DNA from: an uncultured bacterium
GTDB taxonomy: Bacteria > Patescibacteriota > Minisyncoccia > Moranbacterales > UBA2206
Assembly (NCBI GenBank): GCA_903841185.1
Contig: CAIMIV010000042.1
Span: 11,319-75,318, forward strand
Reading direction: 5' to 3'
DNA: 64,000 nucleotides
The notes under the pieces: generated by a model
What the model saw: only the letters and a program-made list of their open reading frames with translations
The model's database searches: none
Told to the model about the DNA's origin: nothing
Position numbers and translations under genes: made by a program
Shown here: positions 1,178 through 31,790 of the stretch, piece by piece
Layout of the letters: each line of letters starts with the position of its first letter
Position numbering within the stretch: the first letter of the stretch is position 1

Positions 1178-2965
1178 ATGAGTAAAAAAGAGAATAAGAA
1201 AAAACAGGAGGGGATTGATTTGAGGCGCTTTTGGACGCGTCTTTGGCGGCTGTTGGAACCCAGTCATAAGCAGATTATAAGATTGCTGTTCTTGACTATT
1301 GTGATAGAGATAATCAGCTTACTGGGTCCATATATGCTGAAATTGGTGATTGATAAAATTACTCATTTTGATGTGGCTCAAATAGGTAGCATCATTGGTT
1401 TGGTTATTGTAACATTTTTGGTTAATCAGTTGGTTTCAGTGACGGATTATTTTCGTGATCGAAGAGTATTTGATGTCTTGACGGATATTATCTCCTACCT
1501 GGCTAATAATGCACACAAAAAAATGGTATTTTTGAGTTTAGGCTATCACGAAAAAGAAAGCACCGGCAGTAAAATCATTAAAATCAGTCGGGGGATTGAT
1601 AAGATTGACAATTTGTTCGGCAATTTTTTCTGGGAAGTGGCGCCCACAATTTTTCAAGTGATTTTTACCGCCATTACGCTGTTTGTCATTGATTGGCGTT
1701 TTGCTATTATTATCATTATCTTTATACCGGCTTTTGTTTTTCTGACTGTGCGGGTTAATAAGATGGTATTTCCCTTTCGCAAAAAGCGTTTCGATGAGCA
1801 AGAAGTGGCTTCCGGGATGATGGCGCAATCTATTATTAATATCAATACGGTCAAATCTTTTGTGCAAGAATGGCGAGAATATGGGCGGTTTTCTCGGGCG
1901 ACGGAAAATATCAGAACAAGTATCTTGGGTGAATATCGCAAGATTTTGAAATACAACTTGTTGCGCAATTTGATCATTGATTTAGGGCGAGGATCAGTGT
2001 TGATGCTTGGCGTGTATTTGGTGATGCGTAGTCAGATTACCTTAGGAAGTTTAGTGTTTGTTTTCACTATCTCGGAAAAAGGTTTGATTTCCCTTTTCCG
2101 TGTTTCGCGATTGTATGATCGCATCATGGAATCCAGTGAAGCGGTGGAAAGATTGTATGTGCTGTCTACGGAAGAATCGGAAATAGAAAACAATCCCCAT
2201 GGTTTCAAACCGAAAAGCATTGAAGGGCAGATTGAATTCAAAGACCTTTCCTTCTATTATAACGATAGCAAAAATAGCGCCATCAGCCATGCCAGTTTTC
2301 AAATTTCTTCCAATTGTGTCACCGCGCTGGTGGGCCCTTCCGGCGGTGGCAAGACCACAGTGGTGCGTATGCTCTATCGGCATTATGATCCCAGCAGTGG
2401 ACAGATTTTGCTGGATGGCAGGGATCTGCGCGAATATGACCTATATGCTTTTCGCAAATTCATGGCTATCGTGCCTCAGGAAGTGGATATTTTTGATACT
2501 AGTGTCAAAGAAAATATTGCTTATGCCAAACCGGGAGCCAGTCAGGAAGAAATCGTGGCGGCGGCGCGCATTGCTAATGCTGAAGAGTTCATTTTGCAAC
2601 TGAATGCCGGTTATGATACGATGGTCGGCGAGCGCGGTATCAAATTGTCCGGCGGGCAAAGGCAACGGATCGGCATCGCGCGGGCCATTCTGGCTAATCC
2701 GAAAATTTTGATTTTCGACGAAGCCACGAGCAATTTGGATTCGCAAAGCGAACGCTTGATCCAGGATGCCATGGACAAGATTTCCAAAAACCGCACGGTG
2801 ATTATGATCGCTCATCGCTTGAGCACCATTCGCAAGGCGGACAAGATTATTGTCTTGGAAAAGGGACGAGTCATCGAATCCGGCAGTCATCACGAATTGG
2901 CCAAATCCGATGGCGGACTGTACCAAAAATTGCTCCAATTGCAGCAAATGGGGGAAGTGGATTAA
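1178..2965 (+). CDS. ABC exporter, fused permease and ATPase (MsbA/Sav1866-like)
   Basis: N-terminal TM helices; GPSGGGKT, LSGGQRQR, ILIFDEATS, IAHRLST. Confidence 0.93.
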   Translation: MSKKENKKKQEGIDLRRFWTRLWRLLEPSHKQIIRLLFLTIVIEIISLLGPYMLKLVIDKITHFDVAQIGSIIGLVIVTFLVNQLVSVTDYFRDRRVFDVLTDIISYLANNAHKKMVFLSLGYHEKESTGSKIIKISRGIDKIDNLFGNFFWEVAPTIFQVIFTAITLFVIDWRFAIIIIIFIPAFVFLTVRVNKMVFPFRKKRFDEQEVASGMMAQSIININTVKSFVQEWREYGRFSRATENIRTSILGEYRKILKYNLLRNLIIDLGRGSVLMLGVYLVMRSQITLGSLVFVFTISEKGLISLFRVSRLYDRIMESSEAVERLYVLSTEESEIENNPHGFKPKSIEGQIEFKDLSFYYNDSKNSAISHASFQISSNCVTALVGPSGGGKTTVVRMLYRHYDPSSGQILLDGRDLREYDLYAFRKFMAIVPQEVDIFDTSVKENIAYAKPGASQEEIVAAARIANAEEFILQLNAGYDTMVGERGIKLSGGQRQRIGIARAILANPKILIFDEATSNLDSQSERLIQDAMDKISKNRTVIMIAHRLSTIRKADKIIVLEKGRVIESGSHHELAKSDGGLYQKLLQLQQMGEVD

Positions 2966-22024: not shown

Positions 22025-22945
22025 TTAAACCGTGATTTGACAGAGGCGCCATTTTTGTGCCAGGTCTTTATGAAATGCGATGTGCGCTTGCGGAAGACGC
22101 TTTCGGATTAGCACCGGCAGTTGTCTTTTTTGCTCCGGACTGATCTCCATGTAACATGTTACATGTACCAAGGCATGAGTATTTTTTAGAGTTTCCATTT
22201 GCTGCAGCAGCTCCTCATAGTGTGCCAGTCCGGCAGCGGCGCTGTAGAGAGCGGATCGCGGTTCATATTTTTGCACGGTGGGGTGGGTGGCGGCATAGAT
22301 TTCGTCGGAGAGATAGGGGAGGTTGGCCAAGATTATCATCTTGGAATTTTCAATGTTCAATTTACAATTTTCAATTAGTGTTTCAAGAAGATTTCCTTGT
22401 AAGAATTTTATTTTTTTGGCCACGCCGTGGGTCTGGGCGTTTTGCTGTGCAACCGTTAGCGCTGCATTAGAAATATCCACGGCGAAGAATTTTGAATTTT
22501 GTCCGCCAGCTGGCGGATTGAATTTCGAATCAATGATTAAATTTTTTAAGATAGAAATAATAATATTGCCCGACCCAGTTCCCACGTCTACAATCATTTG
22601 ATGTTTGATGTTTGATGTTTGATGTTTGCTGGATATTTCCTGCAAGGCCATCTCGACCATCAATTCGGTCTCAGGACGGGGGATGAGCGTATCTGGGGTC
22701 ACAGCGAATGACAGGCCAAAAAACTCCCTGTAGCCCAGAATATAGGCCAAGGGCTCATCGCTCATTCTTCGCGTAATTTTTAAGTCTAAATTTTTAATTT
22801 TTAATGATGGAAGGACATATTCCGGGTAGGTCAGGACGAACTCGCGCGACTTTCCAATTTCTGCCGCAATCAGCACATCCAAGTCCAAGCGGTCAATTTT
22901 CCCGGCATATTTTTTCTGCAGGTCCGCGATGGTGGTCTTTGTCAT
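22025..22945 (-). CDS. prmC: Release factor glutamine methyltransferase carrying several in-frame repeat insertions
   Basis: EPLAYILG..EFFG, LIPRPETE, DVGTGSG, ANLPY, EPRSAL. Confidence 0.92.
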   Translation of the reverse strand: MTKTTIADLQKKYAGKIDRLDLDVLIAAEIGKSREFVLTYPEYVLPSLKIKNLDLKITRRMSDEPLAYILGYREFFGLSFAVTPDTLIPRPETELMVEMALQEISSKHQTSNIKHQMIVDVGTGSGNIIISILKNLIIDSKFNPPAGGQNSKFFAVDISNAALTVAQQNAQTHGVAKKIKFLQGNLLETLIENCKLNIENSKMIILANLPYLSDEIYAATHPTVQKYEPRSALYSAAAGLAHYEELLQQMETLKNTHALVHVTCYMEISPEQKRQLPVLIRKRLPQAHIAFHKDLAQKWRLCQITV

Positions 22946-22954
22946 AATATTTTT

Positions 22955-23815
22955 TTAATCCAGTGGGCTTTTGATAGTCTGCAAATTAGTATTGGCCACC
23001 CTGGTGTAGATCTGTGTCGTTTCAAGGCGTGCATGACCCAGCAACTCTTGGATATAGCGAATGCTCGTGCCGGCTTCTAAAAGGTGAGTGGCGAAAGAAT
23101 GGCGCAAGCTGTGGCAAGAAACTTTTTTAGCAATGCCGGCCAGCTCAACTGCTTTTTTAACTATTTTTTCAGCACTTTCAGCAGTCAGATGTCCTTGTCC
23201 ACCAGCTCCAGTAAATAAATAGTCATTTGGCTTCTTCAGGGTTAATTGTTTTTGTAATGTTGGAATGAGTTTTTCAGATAACAGTGTGCAACGATCTTTT
23301 CCTCCCTTACCTTGGCGAACCATAATCATTTTTCTATCCAAATCAAAATCGCACATTCGGATTTTGATTGTCTCACTAACGCGCAGACCTGCCGAATACA
23401 TTAGTGATATCAAAAAATTATGTTTGGGGTTAGTTGTTTTCTCGAGCATTCGTTCAATCTCTTCTTTACTAAGGATTGTCGGCAGATAGTTGGTTTTTTT
23501 GGCACCTTTTATATCAAAGAAAAATTTGCGTTTCAATATTTGACGGTAATAGAATTTAAGGGCATTAAGTGCAACATTCAGGGTGGAATTGGCACAGTCC
23601 TTGTCTTTCAAAGAGATTAGGTATTGGCGAATGTCATCATTGGTTACTAGTTTGGGGCTTTTATCAGTAAATTGCAAAAAAAGCTTATTATAAAGTACAT
23701 AAGACTTTATAGTTTTTGGGCTAAAACCCCTGATTCTCAACTCTTGTTCTAAATTATACAGAGGGTCTCGTTCTTGAGTTGTTGTTTTTCCATCCATATG
23801 ATAGTATGTGTTCAT
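22955..23815 (-). CDS. IntI-like tyrosine recombinase lacking the integron-specific insertion
   Basis: IRGFSPKTIKSY, STLNVALNALKFYY, LPTILS, GLRVSE, GKGGKDR, HSLRHSFATHLLE, QELLGH, TTQIYT, C-terminal SPLD; 286 aa. Confidence 0.9.
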   Translation of the reverse strand: MNTYYHMDGKTTTQERDPLYNLEQELRIRGFSPKTIKSYVLYNKLFLQFTDKSPKLVTNDDIRQYLISLKDKDCANSTLNVALNALKFYYRQILKRKFFFDIKGAKKTNYLPTILSKEEIERMLEKTTNPKHNFLISLMYSAGLRVSETIKIRMCDFDLDRKMIMVRQGKGGKDRCTLLSEKLIPTLQKQLTLKKPNDYLFTGAGGQGHLTAESAEKIVKKAVELAGIAKKVSCHSLRHSFATHLLEAGTSIRYIQELLGHARLETTQIYTRVANTNLQTIKSPLD

Positions 23816-23879
23816 ATGATAGTTATGATTACATCAAAATCATAGCATAAACCATTGCTCAAGCCAATAACTTAGCAGG

Positions 23880-23900
23880 TACGAATAAAACTAGTTATCG
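23880..23900 (+). other. attI-like recombination site, crossover GTT at 23894
   Basis: taaaactaGTT about 80 bp upstream of the divergent integrase, resembling the attI1 core TAAAACAAAGTT; the first cassette starts here. Confidence 0.65.
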
Positions 23901-23917
23901 GAAATAATTTATCACCT

Positions 23918-24163
23918 ATGAATGAAAAATACAAAAAAATAGCCTTATCAGCATATATTCTTACAGCTGCCTATTTATCGACCGTATATAATTTCATTGG
24001 TCTCGTGGGGGCTGATTTTATCTTGGCGATTTTGGTTGCGATTTTACTAAATAGCTTTTTAGCATATCTGATATGGTCGAGTGATAAAACGCGAAAGTAT
24101 TCGGCTATTATTTTGACGATATTATTGTTGTTGGCCGCTCTTCATTTGTTGCCAGTATTTTAA
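23918..24163 (+). CDS. Cassette 1 cargo: 81-aa three-TM membrane protein
   Basis: Hydrophobic ORF filling the space between the cassette's inverted repeats. Confidence 0.7.
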   Translation: MNEKYKKIALSAYILTAAYLSTVYNFIGLVGADFILAILVAILLNSFLAYLIWSSDKTRKYSAIILTILLLLAALHLLPVF

Positions 24164-24183
24164 AGGTGGTGATAAATTACATC

Positions 24184-24381
24184 CGATAACAAAGAATATC
24201 TGGTTCAAAAAATTTGCCACAACTAAAACTAAAAGGAGGGCAAATTTTTCTCTCCCAAATCCCGCACTTTTCCGTTTTGTTGTAATTTAGAGTATAATGA
24301 GATGAATAAATAAATAAGAATATTAAGGTTTTGTGCCTAAAAGCCAAAGTGCAGGACTTCAGATATTCTTAAACGTTAAAC
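24184..24381. repeat. attC-like site 1
   Basis: cgatAAC-a-aagaatatctg...cagatattctt-aaac-GTTaaac; near-identical copies at 24884 and 29393. Confidence 0.85.
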
Positions 24382-24441
24382 GAAATTTTGTTCAAAAATA
24401 TTTTTTCATTTTTTATTGAGCCTTTTTGAAATTTTTTTAGA

Positions 24442-24483
24442 AAAAAGAAAGCCCCAGGTGGAATTGAATTTTCCACGAGGGGC
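24442..24483 (-). terminator. Terminator of the reverse-oriented cassette 2 gene
   Basis: gcccc..gtggaa..ttccac..ggggc hairpin followed by a T tract on the minus strand. Confidence 0.6.
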
Positions 24484-24506
24484 TTAGTTGTTGGCGTGTA
24501 ATGCGC

Positions 24507-24749
24507 TTATAAGTAACAAACGGGTCCGTTCTCACCTTTTTTTGTGTAAATTAGTGAAACCATTTGTGCAATAAGGCAGACCAGAAAAAATTCATACCTG
24601 CTTCCATTGATTTTTGGAATGTCAAATACCACGCTTGTGATTGCACTTAACATTCCAATGGTCCCCATAATTACGCCGATCCAGGCAAAAAACGTGTTAT
24701 TTTTATGCCAAATTTCTTTCATTATGACATCCTCCTTTTCGAGTTTCAT
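24507..24749 (-). CDS. Cassette 2 cargo: small two-TM protein in reverse orientation
   Basis: Two hydrophobic helices; own promoter and terminator; alternative start at 24722 after aaggagg. Confidence 0.7.
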   Translation of the reverse strand: MKLEKEDVIMKEIWHKNNTFFAWIGVIMGTIGMLSAITSVVFDIPKINGSRYEFFLVCLIAQMVSLIYTKKGENGPVCYL

Positions 24750-24790
24750 GGTTTAATGTACTGTTTAACACCAAAATTAGCGTTCAAAGT

Positions 24791-24819
24791 AGCATAGCAG
24801 AAAACCAGTAACCCGTCAA
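24791..24819 (-). promoter_or_regulatory. sigma70 promoter inside cassette 2
   Basis: Minus strand TTGACG-17 nt-TATGCT with TG extension. Confidence 0.7.
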
Positions 24820-24883
24820 GCCCACGGCCAAAAAATTTCAAAAAGGCTCTTTTAATAAGGAATATATTTTTGAACAAAACATC

Positions 24884-25083
24884 GTTTAACAAAGAATATC
24901 TGGTTCAAAAAATTTGCCGCAGTTAAAAACTAAAAGGAGGGCAAATTTTTCTCTCCCAAATCCAGCACTTTTCCGTTTTGCTGTAATTTAGAGTATAATG
25001 AGATTAACAAAGTAAATAGGAATATCAAGGTTTTGTGCATAAAAACCAAAGTGCAGGACTTCAGATATTCTTAAACGTTAAGT
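24884..25083. repeat. attC-like site 2
   Basis: gtttAAC (RYYYAAC)...GTTaagt (GTTRRRY); same body as site 1. Confidence 0.88.
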
Positions 25084-25215
25084 GAAATAAATCTTTATCT
25101 TTGTGGAAATTTCGAGCCAGGTTGCGTTGAACCAAGACGAAAATTTGATTTTTTTAAAAGTTTTTCCGCCACAGGCGGGATTATTTGGGGCTATTTTATT
25201 TTTAAATATAAAAAT

Positions 25216-26001
25216 ATGGAAAAAATTAACAAAAGCACAACACTGTTATTAAGTTCTTTTGCATTACTTCTGGTGCTAATCATTGCTGGGGTCATATCTT
25301 TCAAAAAAGAAATATCAACCTTAAAAAAAACACAGCAGTCATTATTACAAGAGAATGCGAAACTAAAGCAGGTCACAATTACTGATTCTCCTCAAAAAGC
25401 TCCCGTTGCTGAAATAACGGTTGGCAGTCCATGCGATGTGAATAATGGAAATATTTTAAATTCTAAGGGTCTGCAATGTTATTTTTATGATAGCTTAGAT
25501 TCAAGTGGAAATGAAATATTTCCTCGACACGGGGTATGGATTAAGCCTGATTTACGAAATATGCAAATTGATTCAAAGCTATATGAAATATATTTTAAGT
25601 CATGGAAAAAATATGTAAGTCCGGATAAAACTATTAGTTTTTCTTACCCACAAAACTGGAAAGTTGATGAGTCAAGTTGGAAGGATGGTAACTTATCTAT
25701 ACAATCAAGTGACTATTCACCGATATCAATTTCTAAGATTGAAAATAATGCTATTACAATAGAGCAGAGAATTAGTGATGATGAAAATGATAGACCATTT
25801 GAGAGAACTATTATCGAATTAAATGGCGTTAGTGGCACGAGACTCGACATCGCCCCAAAAGATAATTTAAGTGACCAAGAGCAAATAAAATTCTATTTTC
25901 AAAAGGATAAATATTACGTTGAATTAAGTGTTGCAAAAGCTGGATATGCTGCGTATGATTTTCCGACAGAATATTTATTGAGTACGATAAAAATAAAATA
26001 G
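25216..26001 (+). CDS. Cassette 3 cargo: exported protein with N-terminal TM and a PsbP-like C-terminal domain
   Basis: TM then coiled coil; WKKYVSPDKTISFSYPQNWKV and LLSTIK are typical of PsbP-like domains. Confidence 0.7.
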   Translation: MEKINKSTTLLLSSFALLLVLIIAGVISFKKEISTLKKTQQSLLQENAKLKQVTITDSPQKAPVAEITVGSPCDVNNGNILNSKGLQCYFYDSLDSSGNEIFPRHGVWIKPDLRNMQIDSKLYEIYFKSWKKYVSPDKTISFSYPQNWKVDESSWKDGNLSIQSSDYSPISISKIENNAITIEQRISDDENDRPFERTIIELNGVSGTRLDIAPKDNLSDQEQIKFYFQKDKYYVELSVAKAGYAAYDFPTEYLLSTIKIK

Positions 26002-26114
26002 CCCCAAATAATTGTTTTGCCATTCTGCAAAACAAAAACTTTTAAAAAAAATCAAATTTTCTATTAGCATGGATAAAGTTTGTGCTAATAAAAATGAAGA
26101 TAAAAATTTACATC

Positions 26115-26294
26115 ACTTAACACGGCATATGCGGTTCAAAAATTTTGCGCTATTATATTTCAAGGAGTGCAAAATTTCCTCTCCCAAATTGCGCTGACGG
26201 AATGGCAAGTTTAGTGATATAATCAAGATAAGCGAAATTAACAAAATAATCAATCAATCCACGGCGCAACTTCGCATGTGCCGATACGTTAGAC
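26115..26294. repeat. attC-like site 3: divergent sequence, same architecture
   Basis: acttAAC-a-cggcatatgcg...cgcatgtgccg-atac-GTTagac; keeps ggttcaaaaa, aaggag, ctctcccaaat, tataat, acttc. Confidence 0.82.
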
Positions 26295-26435
26295 GAAATA
26301 AATTTATTTTATTTTTTAAATTCGCTTTTTATAATAAGAAAAAATAAGTTTTTTTATCTATTTATATAGGGGTAAAAAGGTGTTTTCTCCGCTGAGGCTG
26401 CGAAAACGGATTTATTAATATAATTTGTTTATATT

Positions 26436-28172
26436 ATGCAAAAAAATAACGAGATTGATTCATTAAAATTCAGCTGGGGTGATTTGGCGCGAGCGATTTT
26501 ATATTTATTTGGGGAAAAGAAAAATGAATATCTTTTTTCTTTGTTTGTCGTGGCTGTATTTAATTTATACGTAATTGTGCCGCCTTTGATAATTGGAAAA
26601 GTGATTGATTTTTTCAGCACATACAAATCAGGTGAATCGTTGAATACTTTTTATTTTTATGTGATTTTTCTGGGAATTTTCATTGGCGCCGTGCATTATT
26701 TCAATCTCTCCGCAATCCAGAAATTTCTACGTCTTAGCAACGAGTTAGTTTATAAGATTCGCGTCCAGGGCTTTGAGAAGTTATTGGAACAATCACTGTC
26801 CGAGCATGGTGAAGAAAATACAGGCGCCAAAAATCAAAAGATTCAAAATGGCGTGACGGCTTTTAATTTGTTTTCCGAAGCCTTGAATGACAGAATACTT
26901 CCCTCAATAGCGACGCTAGTCGGTGTTTTTGGCGTATTTTTGTATTTGAATTTTATCTATAATATTATTCTGATCGCTTATTTAATTGGCTTTGTCTACA
27001 TCCTTAGATTTTTCAGAAAGAAATTCGTAATGCTTCATTATGAAAAGAGTTTAGCTATGGAAAAATCAAGTGGTACTTATATTGAAGGTTTGAGCAATAT
27101 TACCACGATTAAGGCTAGTGGTGCAGAAAAAAATTTCAAAAGATCAGTCAGCAAAAACGAAGAGGCACGTAATTTTTTTGATCAAGAGATTTTGCGTGTC
27201 CGTGTAAATCAGTGGAAGTTATTTAACATTTATAACGGTATTTATACGGGAATATTTTTGTTTGTTATTGGTAGGGATGTAATCGCTGGCGTGGTTTCGA
27301 TCGGATCAATTGCAATTTTGTTGGCTTATTTAGAGAAAATAACCGACGCATCTGGCAAAGTGCTTGGTATGTATGGCTATTTAATTGACAAAAGAACATC
27401 TATCGCCCGCATGATGACTATTTTTTGGGCTGATAACAATATTTTAACTGGCGAAAAAGAATTCCCAGTCGATTGGCAGGAGATAAAATTAAGCAATGCG
27501 AGTTATGCTTATAAAAATGAAAAAAACACTAAAACTAATATTAACGGTGTCAATCTGGTGATTCAAAAAAACCAAAAAGTTGGCATCATTGGCACAACTG
27601 GCAGTGGCAAATCAACGCTTGTAAAATTATTGCTTGGCCTATACCCGCTTGATAAAGGAGAATACAAAATCGGCACAACTAATTTTTATGACATCAAGCA
27701 TGATGAAATATTCAAGCACATAGCAATTGTCTTACAAGAGTCGGAAATGTTCAATATTTCACTCAAAGAAAATATTGCGTTAAGTGAAAAAATTGATGAA
27801 GGGCGTTTATTGCACGCGATCAACATTGCTCAATTGGATGAGGTGGTGAAAAGCTTACCTAATGGCTTTGAAACTTTAATCGGGGAAAAGGGATACCATC
27901 TTTCTGGCGGCGAACGCCAACGCGTCGGCATTGCTCGAGCGATTTATAAAGATCCTGAAATTATGATTTTTGACGAAGCTACTTCATCACTTGATGTGCA
28001 AACAGAAAAGAAAATTCAAAAAGCACTTTTGGACAATCTTCAGCAAAAAACTATTATCATAGTCGCACATCGAACGAATACCCTGGAAAAAGTAGATGTT
28101 ATCTATAAAGTGGAAGGTGGAAAAATTGTTCAACAAGGAAGTTATGAGGAGTTTTTTGGTATTCACCAATGA
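26436..28172 (+). CDS. Cassette 4 cargo: ABC exporter (permease plus ATPase)
   Basis: GTTGSGKS, LSGGERQR, IFDEATS, VAHR. Confidence 0.92.
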   Translation: MQKNNEIDSLKFSWGDLARAILYLFGEKKNEYLFSLFVVAVFNLYVIVPPLIIGKVIDFFSTYKSGESLNTFYFYVIFLGIFIGAVHYFNLSAIQKFLRLSNELVYKIRVQGFEKLLEQSLSEHGEENTGAKNQKIQNGVTAFNLFSEALNDRILPSIATLVGVFGVFLYLNFIYNIILIAYLIGFVYILRFFRKKFVMLHYEKSLAMEKSSGTYIEGLSNITTIKASGAEKNFKRSVSKNEEARNFFDQEILRVRVNQWKLFNIYNGIYTGIFLFVIGRDVIAGVVSIGSIAILLAYLEKITDASGKVLGMYGYLIDKRTSIARMMTIFWADNNILTGEKEFPVDWQEIKLSNASYAYKNEKNTKTNINGVNLVIQKNQKVGIIGTTGSGKSTLVKLLLGLYPLDKGEYKIGTTNFYDIKHDEIFKHIAIVLQESEMFNISLKENIALSEKIDEGRLLHAINIAQLDEVVKSLPNGFETLIGEKGYHLSGGERQRVGIARAIYKDPEIMIFDEATSSLDVQTEKKIQKALLDNLQQKTIIIVAHRTNTLEKVDVIYKVEGGKIVQQGSYEEFFGIHQ

Positions 28173-28232
28173 CCTCAAACATGATAAAATAAAGATAAGT
28201 TTCACTGCCTATTTTAATAAAATACAAAATTC

Positions 28233-29255
28233 ATGTCCAAAAACAATCATAAAATTAGCATAAAAGACGAATTGACCGAATTTCTGCTTTACACAGCCCC
28301 AAGTGGCAAGGTAAAAGTAGAAATTTACTTTCATGACGAAAATATTTGGCTTACCCAAGACAAAATGGCCAAATTATTTGGCGTGCAACAACCAGCTATT
28401 GCCAAACACTTGAAGAATATTTTTGAAAGCGGTGAATTGCTGGAAAATTCAGTTCATTCCATTTTGGAATATACTGCCAGCGATGGCAAAAAGTATCAAA
28501 CCAAATTTTATAATCTTGACGCCATAATTTCCGTTGGATATCGGGTAAATTCAGCTCAAGCTACTCAATTTCGCATCTGGGCAACAGAAAGGCTTAAAGA
28601 GTACATCATAAAAGGTTTCACCATAGATGATGAGAGATTGAAGAATGGAAGATATTTTGACAAAGATTATTTTCTCGAACTTTTGGAAAGAGTCCGTTCA
28701 ATTCGTGCTAGTGAGCGAAAAATTTATCAGCAAATTACGGATATTTTTGCTGAATGTAGTATGGATTACAGTCCAACATCAGAAATTGCTAAAAATTTTT
28801 ATGCAATGATTCAAAATAAATTCCATTTTGCTATTACTGGCAAAACTGCAGCTGAGATTATTTATGAGACGGCTGACAAGCAAAAACCATTTATGGGACT
28901 TAAGACTTGGAAAAATTCACCAAATGGCAGAATTATCAAATCCGACACAGTTATCGCTAAAAATTATCTTAACGAGGATAAAATAAAAAAACTGGAAAGA
29001 GGCATTGTCGGCTATTTTGATTACATTGAAAGATTGATTGAGAATCACACCGCTCTCACGATGGAAAAGTTGGCGGAATCTGTAAATAACTTTTTGGAGT
29101 TTAACAAGTACGAAGTGCTTGAAGGAAAGGGCACGATTTCTCATGCCCAAGCAGAACAAAAAGCGTTTCAAGAATATGACGAATATAATAAGACGCAGGC
29201 AATAGAATCTGATTTTGACAAACTTGTAAAATCTTTACCGACTGGAGAAAAATAA
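28233..29255 (+). CDS. Cassette 4 cargo: RhuM-family putative DNA-binding protein
   Basis: WLTQDKMAKLF, YNLDAIISVGYRVNS..ATQFRIWAT, IRASER, QNKFHFAITGKTAAE. Confidence 0.9.
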   Translation: MSKNNHKISIKDELTEFLLYTAPSGKVKVEIYFHDENIWLTQDKMAKLFGVQQPAIAKHLKNIFESGELLENSVHSILEYTASDGKKYQTKFYNLDAIISVGYRVNSAQATQFRIWATERLKEYIIKGFTIDDERLKNGRYFDKDYFLELLERVRSIRASERKIYQQITDIFAECSMDYSPTSEIAKNFYAMIQNKFHFAITGKTAAEIIYETADKQKPFMGLKTWKNSPNGRIIKSDTVIAKNYLNEDKIKKLERGIVGYFDYIERLIENHTALTMEKLAESVNNFLEFNKYEVLEGKGTISHAQAEQKAFQEYDEYNKTQAIESDFDKLVKSLPTGEK

Positions 29256-29392
29256 GGAGTTTTGAATTTTAGGCATTCCCGCCAGAGGCGGACAGGCATC
29301 CCTGACCCCTCTGCCCAAAATCCAAAACAAAAAAACTTATTTAATCTATTTAGAATAAAAAGCGAATTTAAAAAAGAAAATAAATTTACATC

Positions 29393-29610
29393 GTCTAACA
29401 AAGAATATCTGGTTCAAAAAATTTGCCGCAGTTAAAAATACAAGGAGGGCAAATTTTTTTCTCCCCTGCCTACCGGCAGGCAGGCAAATCCCGCACTTTT
29501 CCATTTTGTCGTAATTTAGGGTATAATAGGATTAATAAATAAATAGGAATATTAAGGTTTTATGCATAAAAACCAAAGTGCAGGACTTCAGATATTCTTA
29601 AACGTTAGGT
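29393..29610. repeat. attC-like site 4, with a 20-bp palindrome inserted at 29465-29484
   Basis: gtctAAC...GTTaggt; body matches sites 1 and 2 apart from cctgcctaccggcaggcagg. Confidence 0.88.
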
Positions 29611-29652
29611 GTAATTTATTTAAAATCCCTTAAAAAATAAATTAAGAAAAAT

Positions 29653-29955
29653 ATGACAACAATAAATGAGTTTCAAGAAATGTGTGCCAAGGTGGTGGGG
29701 GAGATTGACGCAAAATATGGCATTGCTCGTGACCCGCATTTTAGCTTCACACAATTTATGGAAGAAGTTGGTGAACTGGCGAAAGAGATAAATAAGCCGA
29801 AGTTGCGCAACAAAGAAATGGATCGGGAAAATTTGAACGGTGAATTTGCCGACGTCATCTTGCAGTTTTTCACACTTGCCAGTATGCTAGAAGTAGATGT
29901 GGAAAAGGCAGTTGAAGCTAAAATGGCGATACTGAAAGAGCGACATGATTTATAA
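29653..29955 (+). CDS. MazG-like nucleotide pyrophosphohydrolase, probable last cassette
   Basis: EEVGELAKE and GEFADV motifs. Confidence 0.85.
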   Translation: MTTINEFQEMCAKVVGEIDAKYGIARDPHFSFTQFMEEVGELAKEINKPKLRNKEMDRENLNGEFADVILQFFTLASMLEVDVEKAVEAKMAILKERHDL

Positions 29956-29972
29956 TTTTAAATTACAATCCT

Positions 29973-30392
29973 ATGGGAAGGGAACAACCGCCGACATTTG
30001 ATCCGCGTGATGAGAAATATAAAAAAGTGGAGGATTTGCCGGAAGAAGAGCAGGAGAATTTTGTAAAAGTGAATGGTGGATTTATTACGCAAAAGGCCAA
30101 GCGCTTTGAGGACGCGGTTTTGAAGCAGGAGGAATTGCTTAATCCAAAGATCTTTAGGGGAAAAACTGCTGACATAATTCAAAATAGCTTGAAGGAGTCA
30201 CCGGAGGAATATATAAAGCACCATCGGCGACTAAGGCGGTGTAAAGCGTGGGCCGCTGGAGAGGAAGCCGCTGTGGCCGAAAAAAATATTATGCCGAATG
30301 AGGAGACTATTCCGGAAGACGCTAGTACGGCGGATGGACAGTCAGCTTTGACAGAAGAGGAATTGTCTGAAAAAACATGCAAAAGAATATGA
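29973..30392 (+). CDS. Hypothetical acidic protein
   Basis: ATG-started ORF overlapping the next gene; no recognised motif. Confidence 0.5.
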   Translation: MGREQPPTFDPRDEKYKKVEDLPEEEQENFVKVNGGFITQKAKRFEDAVLKQEELLNPKIFRGKTADIIQNSLKESPEEYIKHHRRLRRCKAWAAGEEAAVAEKNIMPNEETIPEDASTADGQSALTEEELSEKTCKRI

Positions 30393-30778
30393 AAAAAGAT
30401 AACAGAAAAAATAGCCGGCGCAGCCTGGTTTTTGTATTAGGTGCTATTTTGTGGTTGAGTGTTATTTTTTTATTTTCTGCCGAGCCGAATTTGCGCTCAC
30501 CTTTTTCCTATAACGTAGATTTCGTTTTACGCAAAATAGCGCACATTGTGGAATATCTTATTTTGACGGTGCTGGTATGGAAGGCTTTGTTGCCGCGAGC
30601 CAAAGGCAACTTGTTGCTGGCGGTTTTTTTGATAGTCTTGAGCGCGGCGGTTTTGGATGAATGTCATCAATTGTTTGTCGCAGGGCGGGAAGGCACGCTC
30701 CGCGACGTGTTGTTTGACGCGGGGGGAATTTTCATTGCTTGGTATTTTATTATTAGAAAAAAAAATGAAAAAAGATAG
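30377..30778 (+). CDS. VanZ-family membrane protein
   Basis: RKIAHIVEYLIL, DECHQLFVAGREG..RDVLFD. Confidence 0.85.
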   Translation: MQKNMKKDNRKNSRRSLVFVLGAILWLSVIFLFSAEPNLRSPFSYNVDFVLRKIAHIVEYLILTVLVWKALLPRAKGNLLLAVFLIVLSAAVLDECHQLFVAGREGTLRDVLFDAGGIFIAWYFIIRKKNEKR

Positions 30779-31790
30779 CATCATTGAATTGGAGATGGGT
30801 GGCGGGGGAGAAAAATCATCGCAACTGATTGCGCAGATCCGGAAAAATTTCACGGTGAAGTCCAAATGGAAAAATAGCGCCGATGATGGAGCTGTTTTTG
30901 ATCTTGGTATAAATAATGTGGAGACGCCCCGCCAGGGCGTCTCCACAGCGTCGGATAAATTGGTGTTCACCACGGATGCTTTTATTGTGGATCCGATTTT
31001 TTTTGCCGGCGGCGACATTGGCAAGATTGCTATGTGTGGCACCATCAATGATTTATGCGTGATGGGCGCGCAGCCGATTGGCATTGGTTTGAGTGTGGTA
31101 ATTGAAGAAGGCTTTCCCGTAGATGATTTGGAAAAAATTATGCAGTCTATTGGAAAAATTTCCCAGGAAACCGGCGTGCCGATTGTGACGGGCGACACTA
31201 AGGTGACGGAAAAAGGCAAGCTCGACAAAATTGAAATTACTACATCGGGTGTCGGTTTGGCTAAAATAATAATCAATAATGGTGGAGCCAAGGTGGGCGA
31301 CGCCGTGATTGCCTCGGGCAATCTCGGCGAACACGCGGTGGCGCTTTTGGCGAGCCGCTTTAATTATAAAACAAAAATCCAGAGCGATTGTCAGCCCTTG
31401 ATTAAAGAAATTCAGAATGTTTCCCCGTATCTTACCTCGTGCAAAGACCCGACCCGCGGAGGTATGGCGGCGGTGCTTAATGAAATCGCGGAAAAATCTA
31501 AAGTAAAAATTGTTCTGGAGGAAGAGCTGTTGCCGTTTGCCAAGGAAACGGTGGCACTTTCCGGACTCTTGGGCATTGATAAATTTTCCTTTCCTTCTGA
31601 AGGGCGCTTTGTGGCCACGGTGCCGGAAAAACAGGCCAAAAAAGTGATTAAAATGCTGCAAAAATTCAATCCCGAGGCTAAAATTATCGGCCACGTGGAG
31701 CGTGGACGAGGCGTGCACCTGCAAACATCGCTAGGCAGCAGCAAAAAAATCGAAGTACCGCGAGGAAAGCTAATCCCGCGAATTTGTTAG
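30765..31790 (+). CDS. hypE: Hydrogenase maturation carbamoyl dehydratase
   Basis: FTTDAFIVDPIFFAGGDIG, TGDTKV, DPTRGG, C-terminal PRIC. Confidence 0.94.
   Translation: MKKDSIIELEMGGGGEKSSQLIAQIRKNFTVKSKWKNSADDGAVFDLGINNVETPRQGVSTASDKLVFTTDAFIVDPIFFAGGDIGKIAMCGTINDLCVMGAQPIGIGLSVVIEEGFPVDDLEKIMQSIGKISQETGVPIVTGDTKVTEKGKLDKIEITTSGVGLAKIIINNGGAKVGDAVIASGNLGEHAVALLASRFNYKTKIQSDCQPLIKEIQNVSPYLTSCKDPTRGGMAAVLNEIAEKSKVKIVLEEELLPFAKETVALSGLLGIDKFSFPSEGRFVATVPEKQAKKVIKMLQKFNPEAKIIGHVERGRGVHLQTSLGSSKKIEVPRGKLIPRIC
30917..30947. repeat. REP-like palindrome inside hypE, in frame
   Basis: tgtggagacgccc-cgcca-gggcgtctccaca, perfect 13-bp stem. Confidence 0.8.

Follow-up and report, generated by a model that had tools for sequence, protein, structure and literature searches.

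We analyzed a 64,000-nucleotide (nt) stretch of contig CAIMIV010000042.1 (positions 11,319 to 75,318; hereafter the window) from an uncultured, ultra-small member of the Patescibacteria, and found that it carries an integron-like array of four tandem gene cassettes, each bounded by its own long terminal inverted repeat. The part of the repeat that continues towards the gene beyond the binding arm of the recombinase is called the clamp here. Clamped cassettes are a real, family-wide and distinct variant of integron-type cassettes. The contig (C42) belongs to a 1.34-Mb genome. The arms lie as follows; cassettes are said to have the same shell when they agree at both ends.

23894-23916, plus strand: cassette 1 left arm, made up of the R' arm and an 11-nt clamp, stopping 1 nt short of the ATG
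24168-24190, plus strand: cassette 1 right arm, clamp plus R'' arm
24375-24437, plus strand: cassette 2 left arm, same shell as a cassette at survey locus L244, whose open reading frame (ORF) is unrelated
24830-24890, plus strand: cassette 2 right arm, from anchored alignment
25077-25204, plus strand: cassette 3 left arm, blocks 25077-25101, 25139-25165 and 25180-25204
25988-26121, plus strand: cassette 3 right arm, blocks 25988-26012, 26035-26061 and 26097-26121
26288-26355, plus strand: cassette 4 left arm, shell common to four cassettes with different cargo
29329-29399, plus strand: cassette 4 right arm, from anchored alignment

To measure the repeats, we compared every cassette start, in an anchored alignment, with the reverse complement of the end of the same cassette. 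Matches were found at 21 of 23 positions in cassette 1; the 63-nt repeat of cassette 2 has 53 matches and the 68-nt repeat of cassette 4 has 62. The 128-nt repeat of cassette 3 consists of three blocks, the innermost matched at 25 of 25. An initial annotation of the window had proposed such cassette-specific repeats, and its coordinates are confirmed to within 1 nt. Own start-end pairs scored 36, 76, 75 and 96 for cassettes 1 to 4, against 8-25 for all 16 non-cognate pairs, and the repeats exceed composition-matched shuffles, since beyond position 12 the observed score was reached by 0 of 100 dinucleotide shuffles in each of the four cassettes. The clamp usually measures 12-15 bp, and long cassettes add further blocks, to 60-130 nt. 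As the annotation had also stated, the left arm of cassette 3 is complementary to the end of its ORF, namely the last 14 coding nucleotides including the stop. All four cassettes in the window have the same start-to-end orientation.

The recombination sites are built from Xer-type arms:

23878-23905, plus strand: attI-like insertion site, 11-6-11 dif-like layout, crossover G^TT at 23894/23895
24179-24386, plus strand: attC-like J12, with an E half at 24179-24206 (11-6-11), a variable loop and an S half at 24356-24386 (11-9-11)
24879-25088, plus strand: attC-like J23, from site alignment
26110-26299, plus strand: attC-like J34, of another loop family, with the L stem altered on both sides
29388-29615, plus strand: attC-like J45, with a 20-nt palindromic insertion and an S half that ends in the unpaired start at 29604

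The first site has the simple 11-6-11 form and begins the array side of the locus, 78 nt upstream from where the recombinase gene starts; in 42 of 62 rows inspected by eye, a similar site lies ahead of the recombinase gene (own locus included, with some rows lacking upstream DNA and some genomes repeated). The linkers of 190-228 nt each combine an 11-6-11 E half with an 11-9-11 S half, giving four 11-nt arms. The inner arms pair as an 11-bp L stem, both sides of which change between J12 and J34 and likewise among relatives, and positions 1-12 of each cassette terminus form the outer arm pair (R'/R''). The attI-like site and the E halves have the layout of dif, a 28-bp site with two 11-bp arms around a 6-bp center (PMC4246890). 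The sites also show the classical attC fold-back order R''-L''...L'-R' with conserved AAC/GTT, whereas their geometry departs from the 7-nt R box, 5-6-nt unpaired central spacer and extrahelical bases on the L'' arm of classical attC (PMC5027507): here the arms are 11 nt long, and the spacers are 6 versus 9 nt, with the extra bases on the L'-R' side. A common variant of the site has one extra G, a bulged base, in the L' stem.

A genome search found no full sites other than these four, of which J23 is 91% identical to J12. A relic S half lies on contig C39 (about 1300-1550, minus strand; survey locus L235); the sequence upstream of it resembles the cassette 2 right end with its promoter, and the E half is absent.

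All four cassettes carry GTTnnnnGAAAT opposite ACATCnnnnAAC, the same two-nucleotide GAAAT/ACATC mismatch at positions 10-11 that the initial annotation had proposed as a recognition determinant outside the binding box. Its constancy was seen again in our alignment; its placement was not upheld. Because the site is made of four 11-nt arms and positions 1-12 are the outer pair, the mismatch lies inside an Xer-type binding arm and is the difference between the two arm consensuses. By analogy with extrahelical bases, it might possibly still serve as a recognition feature.

The recombinase gene diverges from the array:

22955-23815, minus strand: tyrosine recombinase, 286 amino acids (aa), IntI/XerA-like, without the IntI insertion; Pfam Phage_int_SAM_4 and Phage_integrase

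All catalytic residues are present (R145, K170, H235, R238, H261 and Y270). The protein passes the NCBIfam model recomb_XerA_Arch (234 bits, cut-off 220) and falls below the cut-off of the IntI profile TIGR02249 (228.9 against 265), which it matches in two stretches (profile 3-180 and 233-313). Its best match in the PDB is VchIntIA (2a3v), followed by XerA; VchIntIA aligns in two pieces, with query residues 195-208 facing residues 185-240 of the chain. Between the aligned blocks the recombinase is about 42 residues shorter, and the I2, or additional, domain of classical integrons is absent. Profile and PDB scores alone would place the enzyme between Xer and IntI. Near-full-length homologues (41-86% identity) occur in 22 of 40 relatives, and contig C45 of the genome carries a second Xer-like gene. 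Other I2-less recombinases turned up in a plasmid search that was meant for the classical control described below. Judged by the I2 domain and by attC geometry, the array stands outside the classical integron family, though it appears to work like one, and standard searches with IntI and attC models would probably miss such arrays. A literature search, which covered few subscription journals, found no report of I2-less cassette arrays or of clamps beyond the R box.

The same architecture extends through the family. The S-half motif, with at most 2 mismatches, occurs in 42 of 71 family genomes (2 genomes for the reversed control), a form with a longer spacer in 41 of 251 order genomes, and the exact motif in 12 of 401 phylum genomes (control 0). 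At least 119 metagenome stretches contain the S-half motif, and viral contigs gave one match only. From 254 loci, 479 S halves were called (22 on reversed sequence), yielding 161 distinct cassettes after 13 duplicates were dropped: 113 from 56 loci of the Candidate Phyla Radiation (CPR) and 48 from metagenome and viral contigs. Right ends were picked by pairing with the stem of the next site, independently of the repeat under test, and missed sites leave some false pairs among the called cassettes. Since the loci were chosen by patterns containing GAAAT, conservation on the left side is partly built in, while that of ACATC on the right is not.

In the CPR set, pairing at positions 13-24 reached 0.68-0.81 for cognate ends compared with 0.28-0.40 for non-cognate ends, and fell off after position 24-25; at positions 10 and 11 it was 0.04, and the exact mismatch of the window was present in 71 of the 113 cassettes. 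The 95th percentile of non-cognate pairs was exceeded by 80 of 113. As a small classical control, we took 20 stretches beside true IntI genes of Gammaproteobacteria, in which a crude attC finder gave 28 site pairs, 15 of them (6 loci) passing an ORF filter. Classical ends paired through positions 8-11 (0.93, 0.87, 0.73 and 0.60) and then fell to background. Over positions 13-25, at most 5 of 13 matches were found in all 15 classical cassettes, whereas at least 10 were found in 73 of 113 CPR cassettes and 0 of 15 classical ones. The recurrence of the repeats across homologous arrays is thus established, and the long clamp is indeed foreign to the classical cassettes checked. The earlier view that all pairing beyond the 7-bp box is special holds from position 12 onward; positions 8-11 are cassette-specific in classical cassettes too.

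In the survey, some starts lead into short gene-less hairpins, or empty mini-cassettes (L032:5960, L189, L196, L216, L223), and some right ends, at loci such as these, lack ACATC and bear GC-rich repeats.

The polarity of the unit was read from the four variable core bases (nnnn). Of the 82 cassettes with a clear clamp, 65 match their own end at all four of these positions, whereas 4 of 65 match the upstream site. Of 26 pairs with the same shell, 10 have the downstream site in common and 1 the upstream site, compared with 16 of 600 random pairs. As read from these sequences, the cassette is the gene together with the hairpin (attC) downstream of it, with the crossover at G^TT. A variant array agrees with this unit: contigs from 2 of 4 sequencing runs (X2 and X4) of one lake study contain the joint 23893->24375, from which exactly cassette 1 and its downstream hairpin are gone, and adjacent contigs begin at 23868 and 24375, as expected of a bubble. 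The first site is there joined straight to cassette 2 at the predicted crossover, the first cassette being inserted at G^TT. Two further joints were not counted. One, 24886->29396 (X3), runs from cassette 2 to J45, skipping cassettes 3 and 4, and may be a deletion between repeats or an assembly effect, with 43 letters fitting both sides inside near-identical linkers; the other, 24217->25075, also falls inside such linkers. Core mismatches give G-T on the bottom strand in 8 cases and on the top strand in 1.

The genes enclosed by the four shells are diverse:

23918-24163, plus strand: cassette 1 cargo, an 81-aa hydrophobic ORF without Pfam family
24507-24749, minus strand: cassette 2 cargo, an 80-aa ORF in reverse orientation
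25216-26001, plus strand: cassette 3 cargo, 261 aa, with a weak PsbP_2 match below cut-off; the right arm takes in the last 14 coding nucleotides
26436-28172, plus strand: cassette 4 cargo 1, an ABC exporter (membrane and ATPase parts), 578 aa
28233-29255, plus strand: cassette 4 cargo 2, a RhuM-family protein (Pfam), 340 aa

Clustering of cassettes on both ends defined shell families in which the same left and right arms surround unrelated genes. Elsewhere, the shell of cassette 4 holds a 429-aa protein of unknown type, a methylase-restriction fusion, a set of methylase, nucleotidyltransferase and Cap15-domain genes, or a restriction cluster, and that of cassette 2 encloses an unrelated reversed ORF. 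The cargo of the arrays comprises restriction-modification, other defence and metabolic genes; in the survey, NUDIX genes are frequent, restriction-modification sets and a Cap15-domain cluster also occur, and two cassettes contain insertion sequences. Between related shells, concerted changes in both arms affect 32 of 838 paired positions where 2.1 would be expected, and 19 of the 32 fall outside the nnnn core; the count covers 19 pairs of cassettes, which are not independent. An 8-nt indel is common to both arms.

These shells bear on the suggestion that one arm is copied from the other when a cassette is born. The proposal that the inner block of cassette 3 was copied from its ORF was mostly rejected: the block is wholly non-coding in two relatives (L175_5918 and L225_4431), so that it is mostly shell, and copying at birth explains the innermost few bases at most. 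The end of the cassette 3 protein is invariant in 5 of 5 homologues. A homologue of this gene near a tRNA gene (L256:1500-2290, genome G477) has the same final codons, followed by the decayed right end of another shell family, with no intact site. Of the 83 cassettes considered, 72 have plus-strand cargo; in 17 of these 72, the leader has an exact complement of at least 14 nt overlapping the 3' end of the ORF. None of 1070 non-cognate pairs has such a complement, and the mirror case is found once among the 72. A cassette with a HIT gene occurs twice, its two proteins being 60% identical; where a codon near the stop differs between them, the left arm shows the matching change, and the arm extends into family-conserved codons (G in 0.55 and L in 0.67 of 119 homologues). 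The terminal FKN of these proteins is absent in most of the 119 homologues and in three plainly non-cassette copies (8 loci read), and in a second cassette family the overlapped residues are weakly conserved (0.18-0.28). Birth by fresh copying is therefore partly supported: the arms seem mostly to be inherited as shells around unrelated genes, reading frames often appear to enter an inherited arm, and the inner edge may have been adjusted onto the gene end, by copying or by selection.

Folding was predicted at equilibrium with DNA parameters, the excised circles being represented by their junctions only. Pair probabilities of the panhandle, in which the two ends of a cassette pair with the gene as the loop, were mostly 0.8-1.0 in cassettes 1-3, and the panhandle is present in the minimum-energy fold of cassette 4; local GTT:AAC pairing of the classical attC type was 0.00 in the array. 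The L hairpins beside the panhandle coexist with it in cassette 3 (0.98-0.99 and about 0.5). Circle junctions of either strand fold over the complete site. When the clamp was shuffled, circle-junction positions 11-14 on the bottom strand dropped from 0.8-1.0 to 0.0-0.3, and the panhandle core of cassette 3 fell to about 0.25 (3 shuffles). The panhandle that the initial annotation had imagined as single-stranded DNA or RNA is thus a favored equilibrium fold on either strand, while the RNA role gained no positive support. Longer cassettes have longer repeats (rho 0.54 over 64 clusters, each represented by one cassette), a stronger relation than that of the repeats to loop length (rho 0.27 downstream and 0.15 upstream). 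In the leader of cassette 4, a purine run at 26364-26382 is complementary to the loop of a trailer hairpin at 29297-29318, and this pair of motifs recurs across long-shell families, possibly as an extra pairing or a switch.

The model that we judge best, and to which we assign an even chance, is that the inverted repeats form part of the recombination substrate of an integron-like system in which an Xer-like recombinase without I2 acts on folded single-stranded DNA, with the clamp aiding excision. The substrate would probably be the bottom strand. Once the cassette is an excised circle, the clamp would shut the arm at its outer end and so turn the mismatch into an internal loop in a duplex of full Xer length; in the array, the clamp would pair the cassette's own two ends across the gene. 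The panhandle, the two flanking L hairpins and the outer arm pair would then constitute a four-way junction with four binding arms, and this junction would be split into a closed circle and a rejoined array by a single pair of strand exchanges, placed at the two AA^C bonds. Since the clamp would pre-fold the junction, it could stand in for the I2 domain in excision, and the paired ends would probably let an unusually simple recombinase excise and move the cassette. Integration at the double-stranded dif-like attI would proceed by one exchange and replication, as for attC and the CTX phage. The shell (right arm, hairpin and left arm, continuous in the circle) would be inherited while the cargo is replaced; copying between the arms would keep them matched and could extend a few bases into the gene end. 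Xer enzymes without I2 are described as recombining the folded single strand of two inverted dif-like halves (PMC7790495, PMC4246890), which makes the proposed chemistry plausible. More tentatively, the array may be a surviving pre-I2 integron in which DNA rather than protein solves the problem of single-strand recombination: the clamp would pre-fold each cassette with its two flanking hairpins into a Holliday-like junction, which a plain Xer-type enzyme could resolve in a single step, and the shell would be a gene-capture device whose loop is swapped for a new gene and whose inner edge is filled in on the 3' end of that gene.

Several results weigh against this model. For cassette 2, folding of the array does not yield the two local L hairpins (0.00-0.21). 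Shuffling the clamp leaves the 9-bp core panhandle in place in cassettes 1 and 2 (0.87-0.92; 8 and 5 shuffles), so that in the folding model short cassettes need no clamp for end pairing, and circle-junction positions 1-9 still pair. Moreover, these folds represent equilibrium only, without single-strand binding protein and kinetics. Repeat length follows the available non-coding room as strongly as cassette length (rho 0.64), and the two are confounded. One-sided arm changes (73) outnumber concerted ones (32). In the metagenome set, 20 of 48 cassettes exceed the null, with a median extension of 5 nt. Clamp wobbles are divided 17 bottom to 8 top (p 0.11, not significant) and those of the L stem 4 to 4. 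Finally, the short side of the joint 23893->24375 comprises only 26 letters, at 90% likeness and from one study, and the joint may therefore come from a close relative.

Some of these points would suit a different division of labor, which we consider rather unlikely, in which the clamp matters only in the excised circle, completing a long R arm for integration, while excision is classical, through two local hairpins, and the panhandle never forms in the cell. Classical excision is described as attC x attC (PMC5027507), the near-universal part of the clamp is short, with pairing dropping after position 24-25, the clamp closes positions 11-14 in circle junctions, and the cores of cassettes 1 and 2 pair without it. 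This leaves unexplained, however, the growth of the repeats with cassette length above that with loop length and the 60-130-nt blocks far from the arm, and the predicted local R pairing in the array is 0.00. The leader complements to ORF 3' ends, with their one-sided excess, and the HIT cassettes, in which the left arm mirrors a codon change and enters family-conserved codons, could instead be scars of birth, where one arm was copied off the other by fold-back synthesis at gene capture and pairing past the binding arm later had no function. We regard this as improbable: the same arms surround unrelated genes, the inner block of cassette 3 is non-coding in two relatives, the missing terminal FKN in most HIT homologues points to a frame that runs on into the arm, decay rather than continued matching across diverged shells would be expected of a neutral scar, and plain copying would wipe out the fixed mismatch.

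That the arms pair in RNA, as 5' leader and 3' trailer, and regulate or stabilize cassette transcripts seems very unlikely to us. Folding with RNA parameters gives the same stems, the inner blocks are flanked by promoter-like sequence on one side and the ATG on the other, and the purine run of the cassette 4 shell matches its right-end hairpin loop; yet the repeats begin exactly at the crossover G in every cassette, even where the cargo is reversed (cassette 2), core wobbles favor the non-coding strand, and promoter-like sites overall number 27 compared with 24 +/- 5 in shuffles, which is not above chance. There is, in our estimation, hardly any likelihood that the repeats are double-stranded inverted sites, such as transposon-like ends or invertible segments. 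Shells around unrelated cargo do look like terminal inverted repeats, each E half, taken as duplex DNA, has the 11-6-11 form, and Xer-type enzymes normally act on duplex sites. Against this, all four cassettes of the window keep their start-to-end direction, the variant array shows a deletion at G^TT and no inversion, the differing spacers of attI and E halves would block a duplex double exchange, and the L stem co-varies as a hairpin.

Beyond the fourth cassette, no partner end was found for the fifth start at 29604 within 6.3 kb downstream; we read this start as the right half of the original attI or as a decayed fifth cassette, and a MazG gene follows at 29653-29955. The palindrome in J45 (29466-29485) has 27 genome matches (at most 2 mismatches, both strands counted) compared with 0 for a reversed control and is a small repeat similar to repetitive extragenic palindromes (REP-like); a similar insertion lies at 29279-29297 in the right-end hairpin of cassette 4. 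Classical cassettes are promoterless and driven from Pc. Here, promoter-like hexamers in the linker loops (24291-24297, 26194-26223 and 29498-29527) face the next cassette, and another set (24819-24791), recognized by consensus match only, lies beside the right arm of cassette 2. The unpaired part of many right arms carries a conserved TAAGGA-type motif (24850-24860 and 29253-29261 in the window), often directly 3' of the stop. An Rfam search of 22500-31000 gave no matches at E up to 1.

It is an open question how a cassette first arises. Shells whose two ends persist through changes of cargo, together with the one-sided overlap on gene 3' ends, offer a sequence record of cassette making, and the system bears on the origin of gene-capture systems as well as on the making of new cassettes. 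The I2 helix is held to have enabled integron integrases to act on single-stranded sites, with missing intermediates named as a limit (PMC7790495). A natural candidate for such an intermediate is an enzyme without I2 whose attI is dif-like and whose cassette sites are folded and clamped, a combination that is common in this family.

The array resembles classical integrons, among them sedentary chromosomal ones such as VchIntIA/VCR, in its divergent tyrosine recombinase, with VchIntIA as best structural match, in the adjacent insertion site, tandem cassettes, AAC/GTT fold-back sites and G^TT crossover, in the hairpin owned by the upstream cassette, and in cassette-specific R pairing to positions 8-11. 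It differs from them in the lack of I2, in 11-nt Xer-type arms instead of 7-nt boxes, in a paired core with a 3-nt bulge instead of a 5-6-nt unpaired spacer, in sites of about 190-210 nt compared with 57-141 (PMC5027507), in the 12-130-nt clamp on the gene side, and in the reuse of shells around unrelated cargo. Archaeal integrons (Ghaly et al. 2022, PMC9668308) likewise form cassette arrays in uncultured lineages outside the Proteobacteria, but their IntIs are described there as having the additional domain and their attC folds as ordinary; in an integron-like subgroup described in PMC8138268, the insertion is "not fully conserved". With Xer/dif and the integrative mobile elements exploiting Xer (IMEX), which use the dimer resolvase and dif of their host's chromosome, the array shares the 11-6-11 site layout (PMC4246890), a recombinase above the XerA_Arch cut-off, and the absence of I2, despite which Xer recombines a folded single strand, as in the folded attP of the CTX phage (PMC7790495, PMC4246890); it is unlike them in having its own dedicated recombinase beside the site and many small non-autonomous cassettes. 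For the CTX phage, excision was never detected according to the account in PMC4246890, whereas here a variant without cassette 1 exists.

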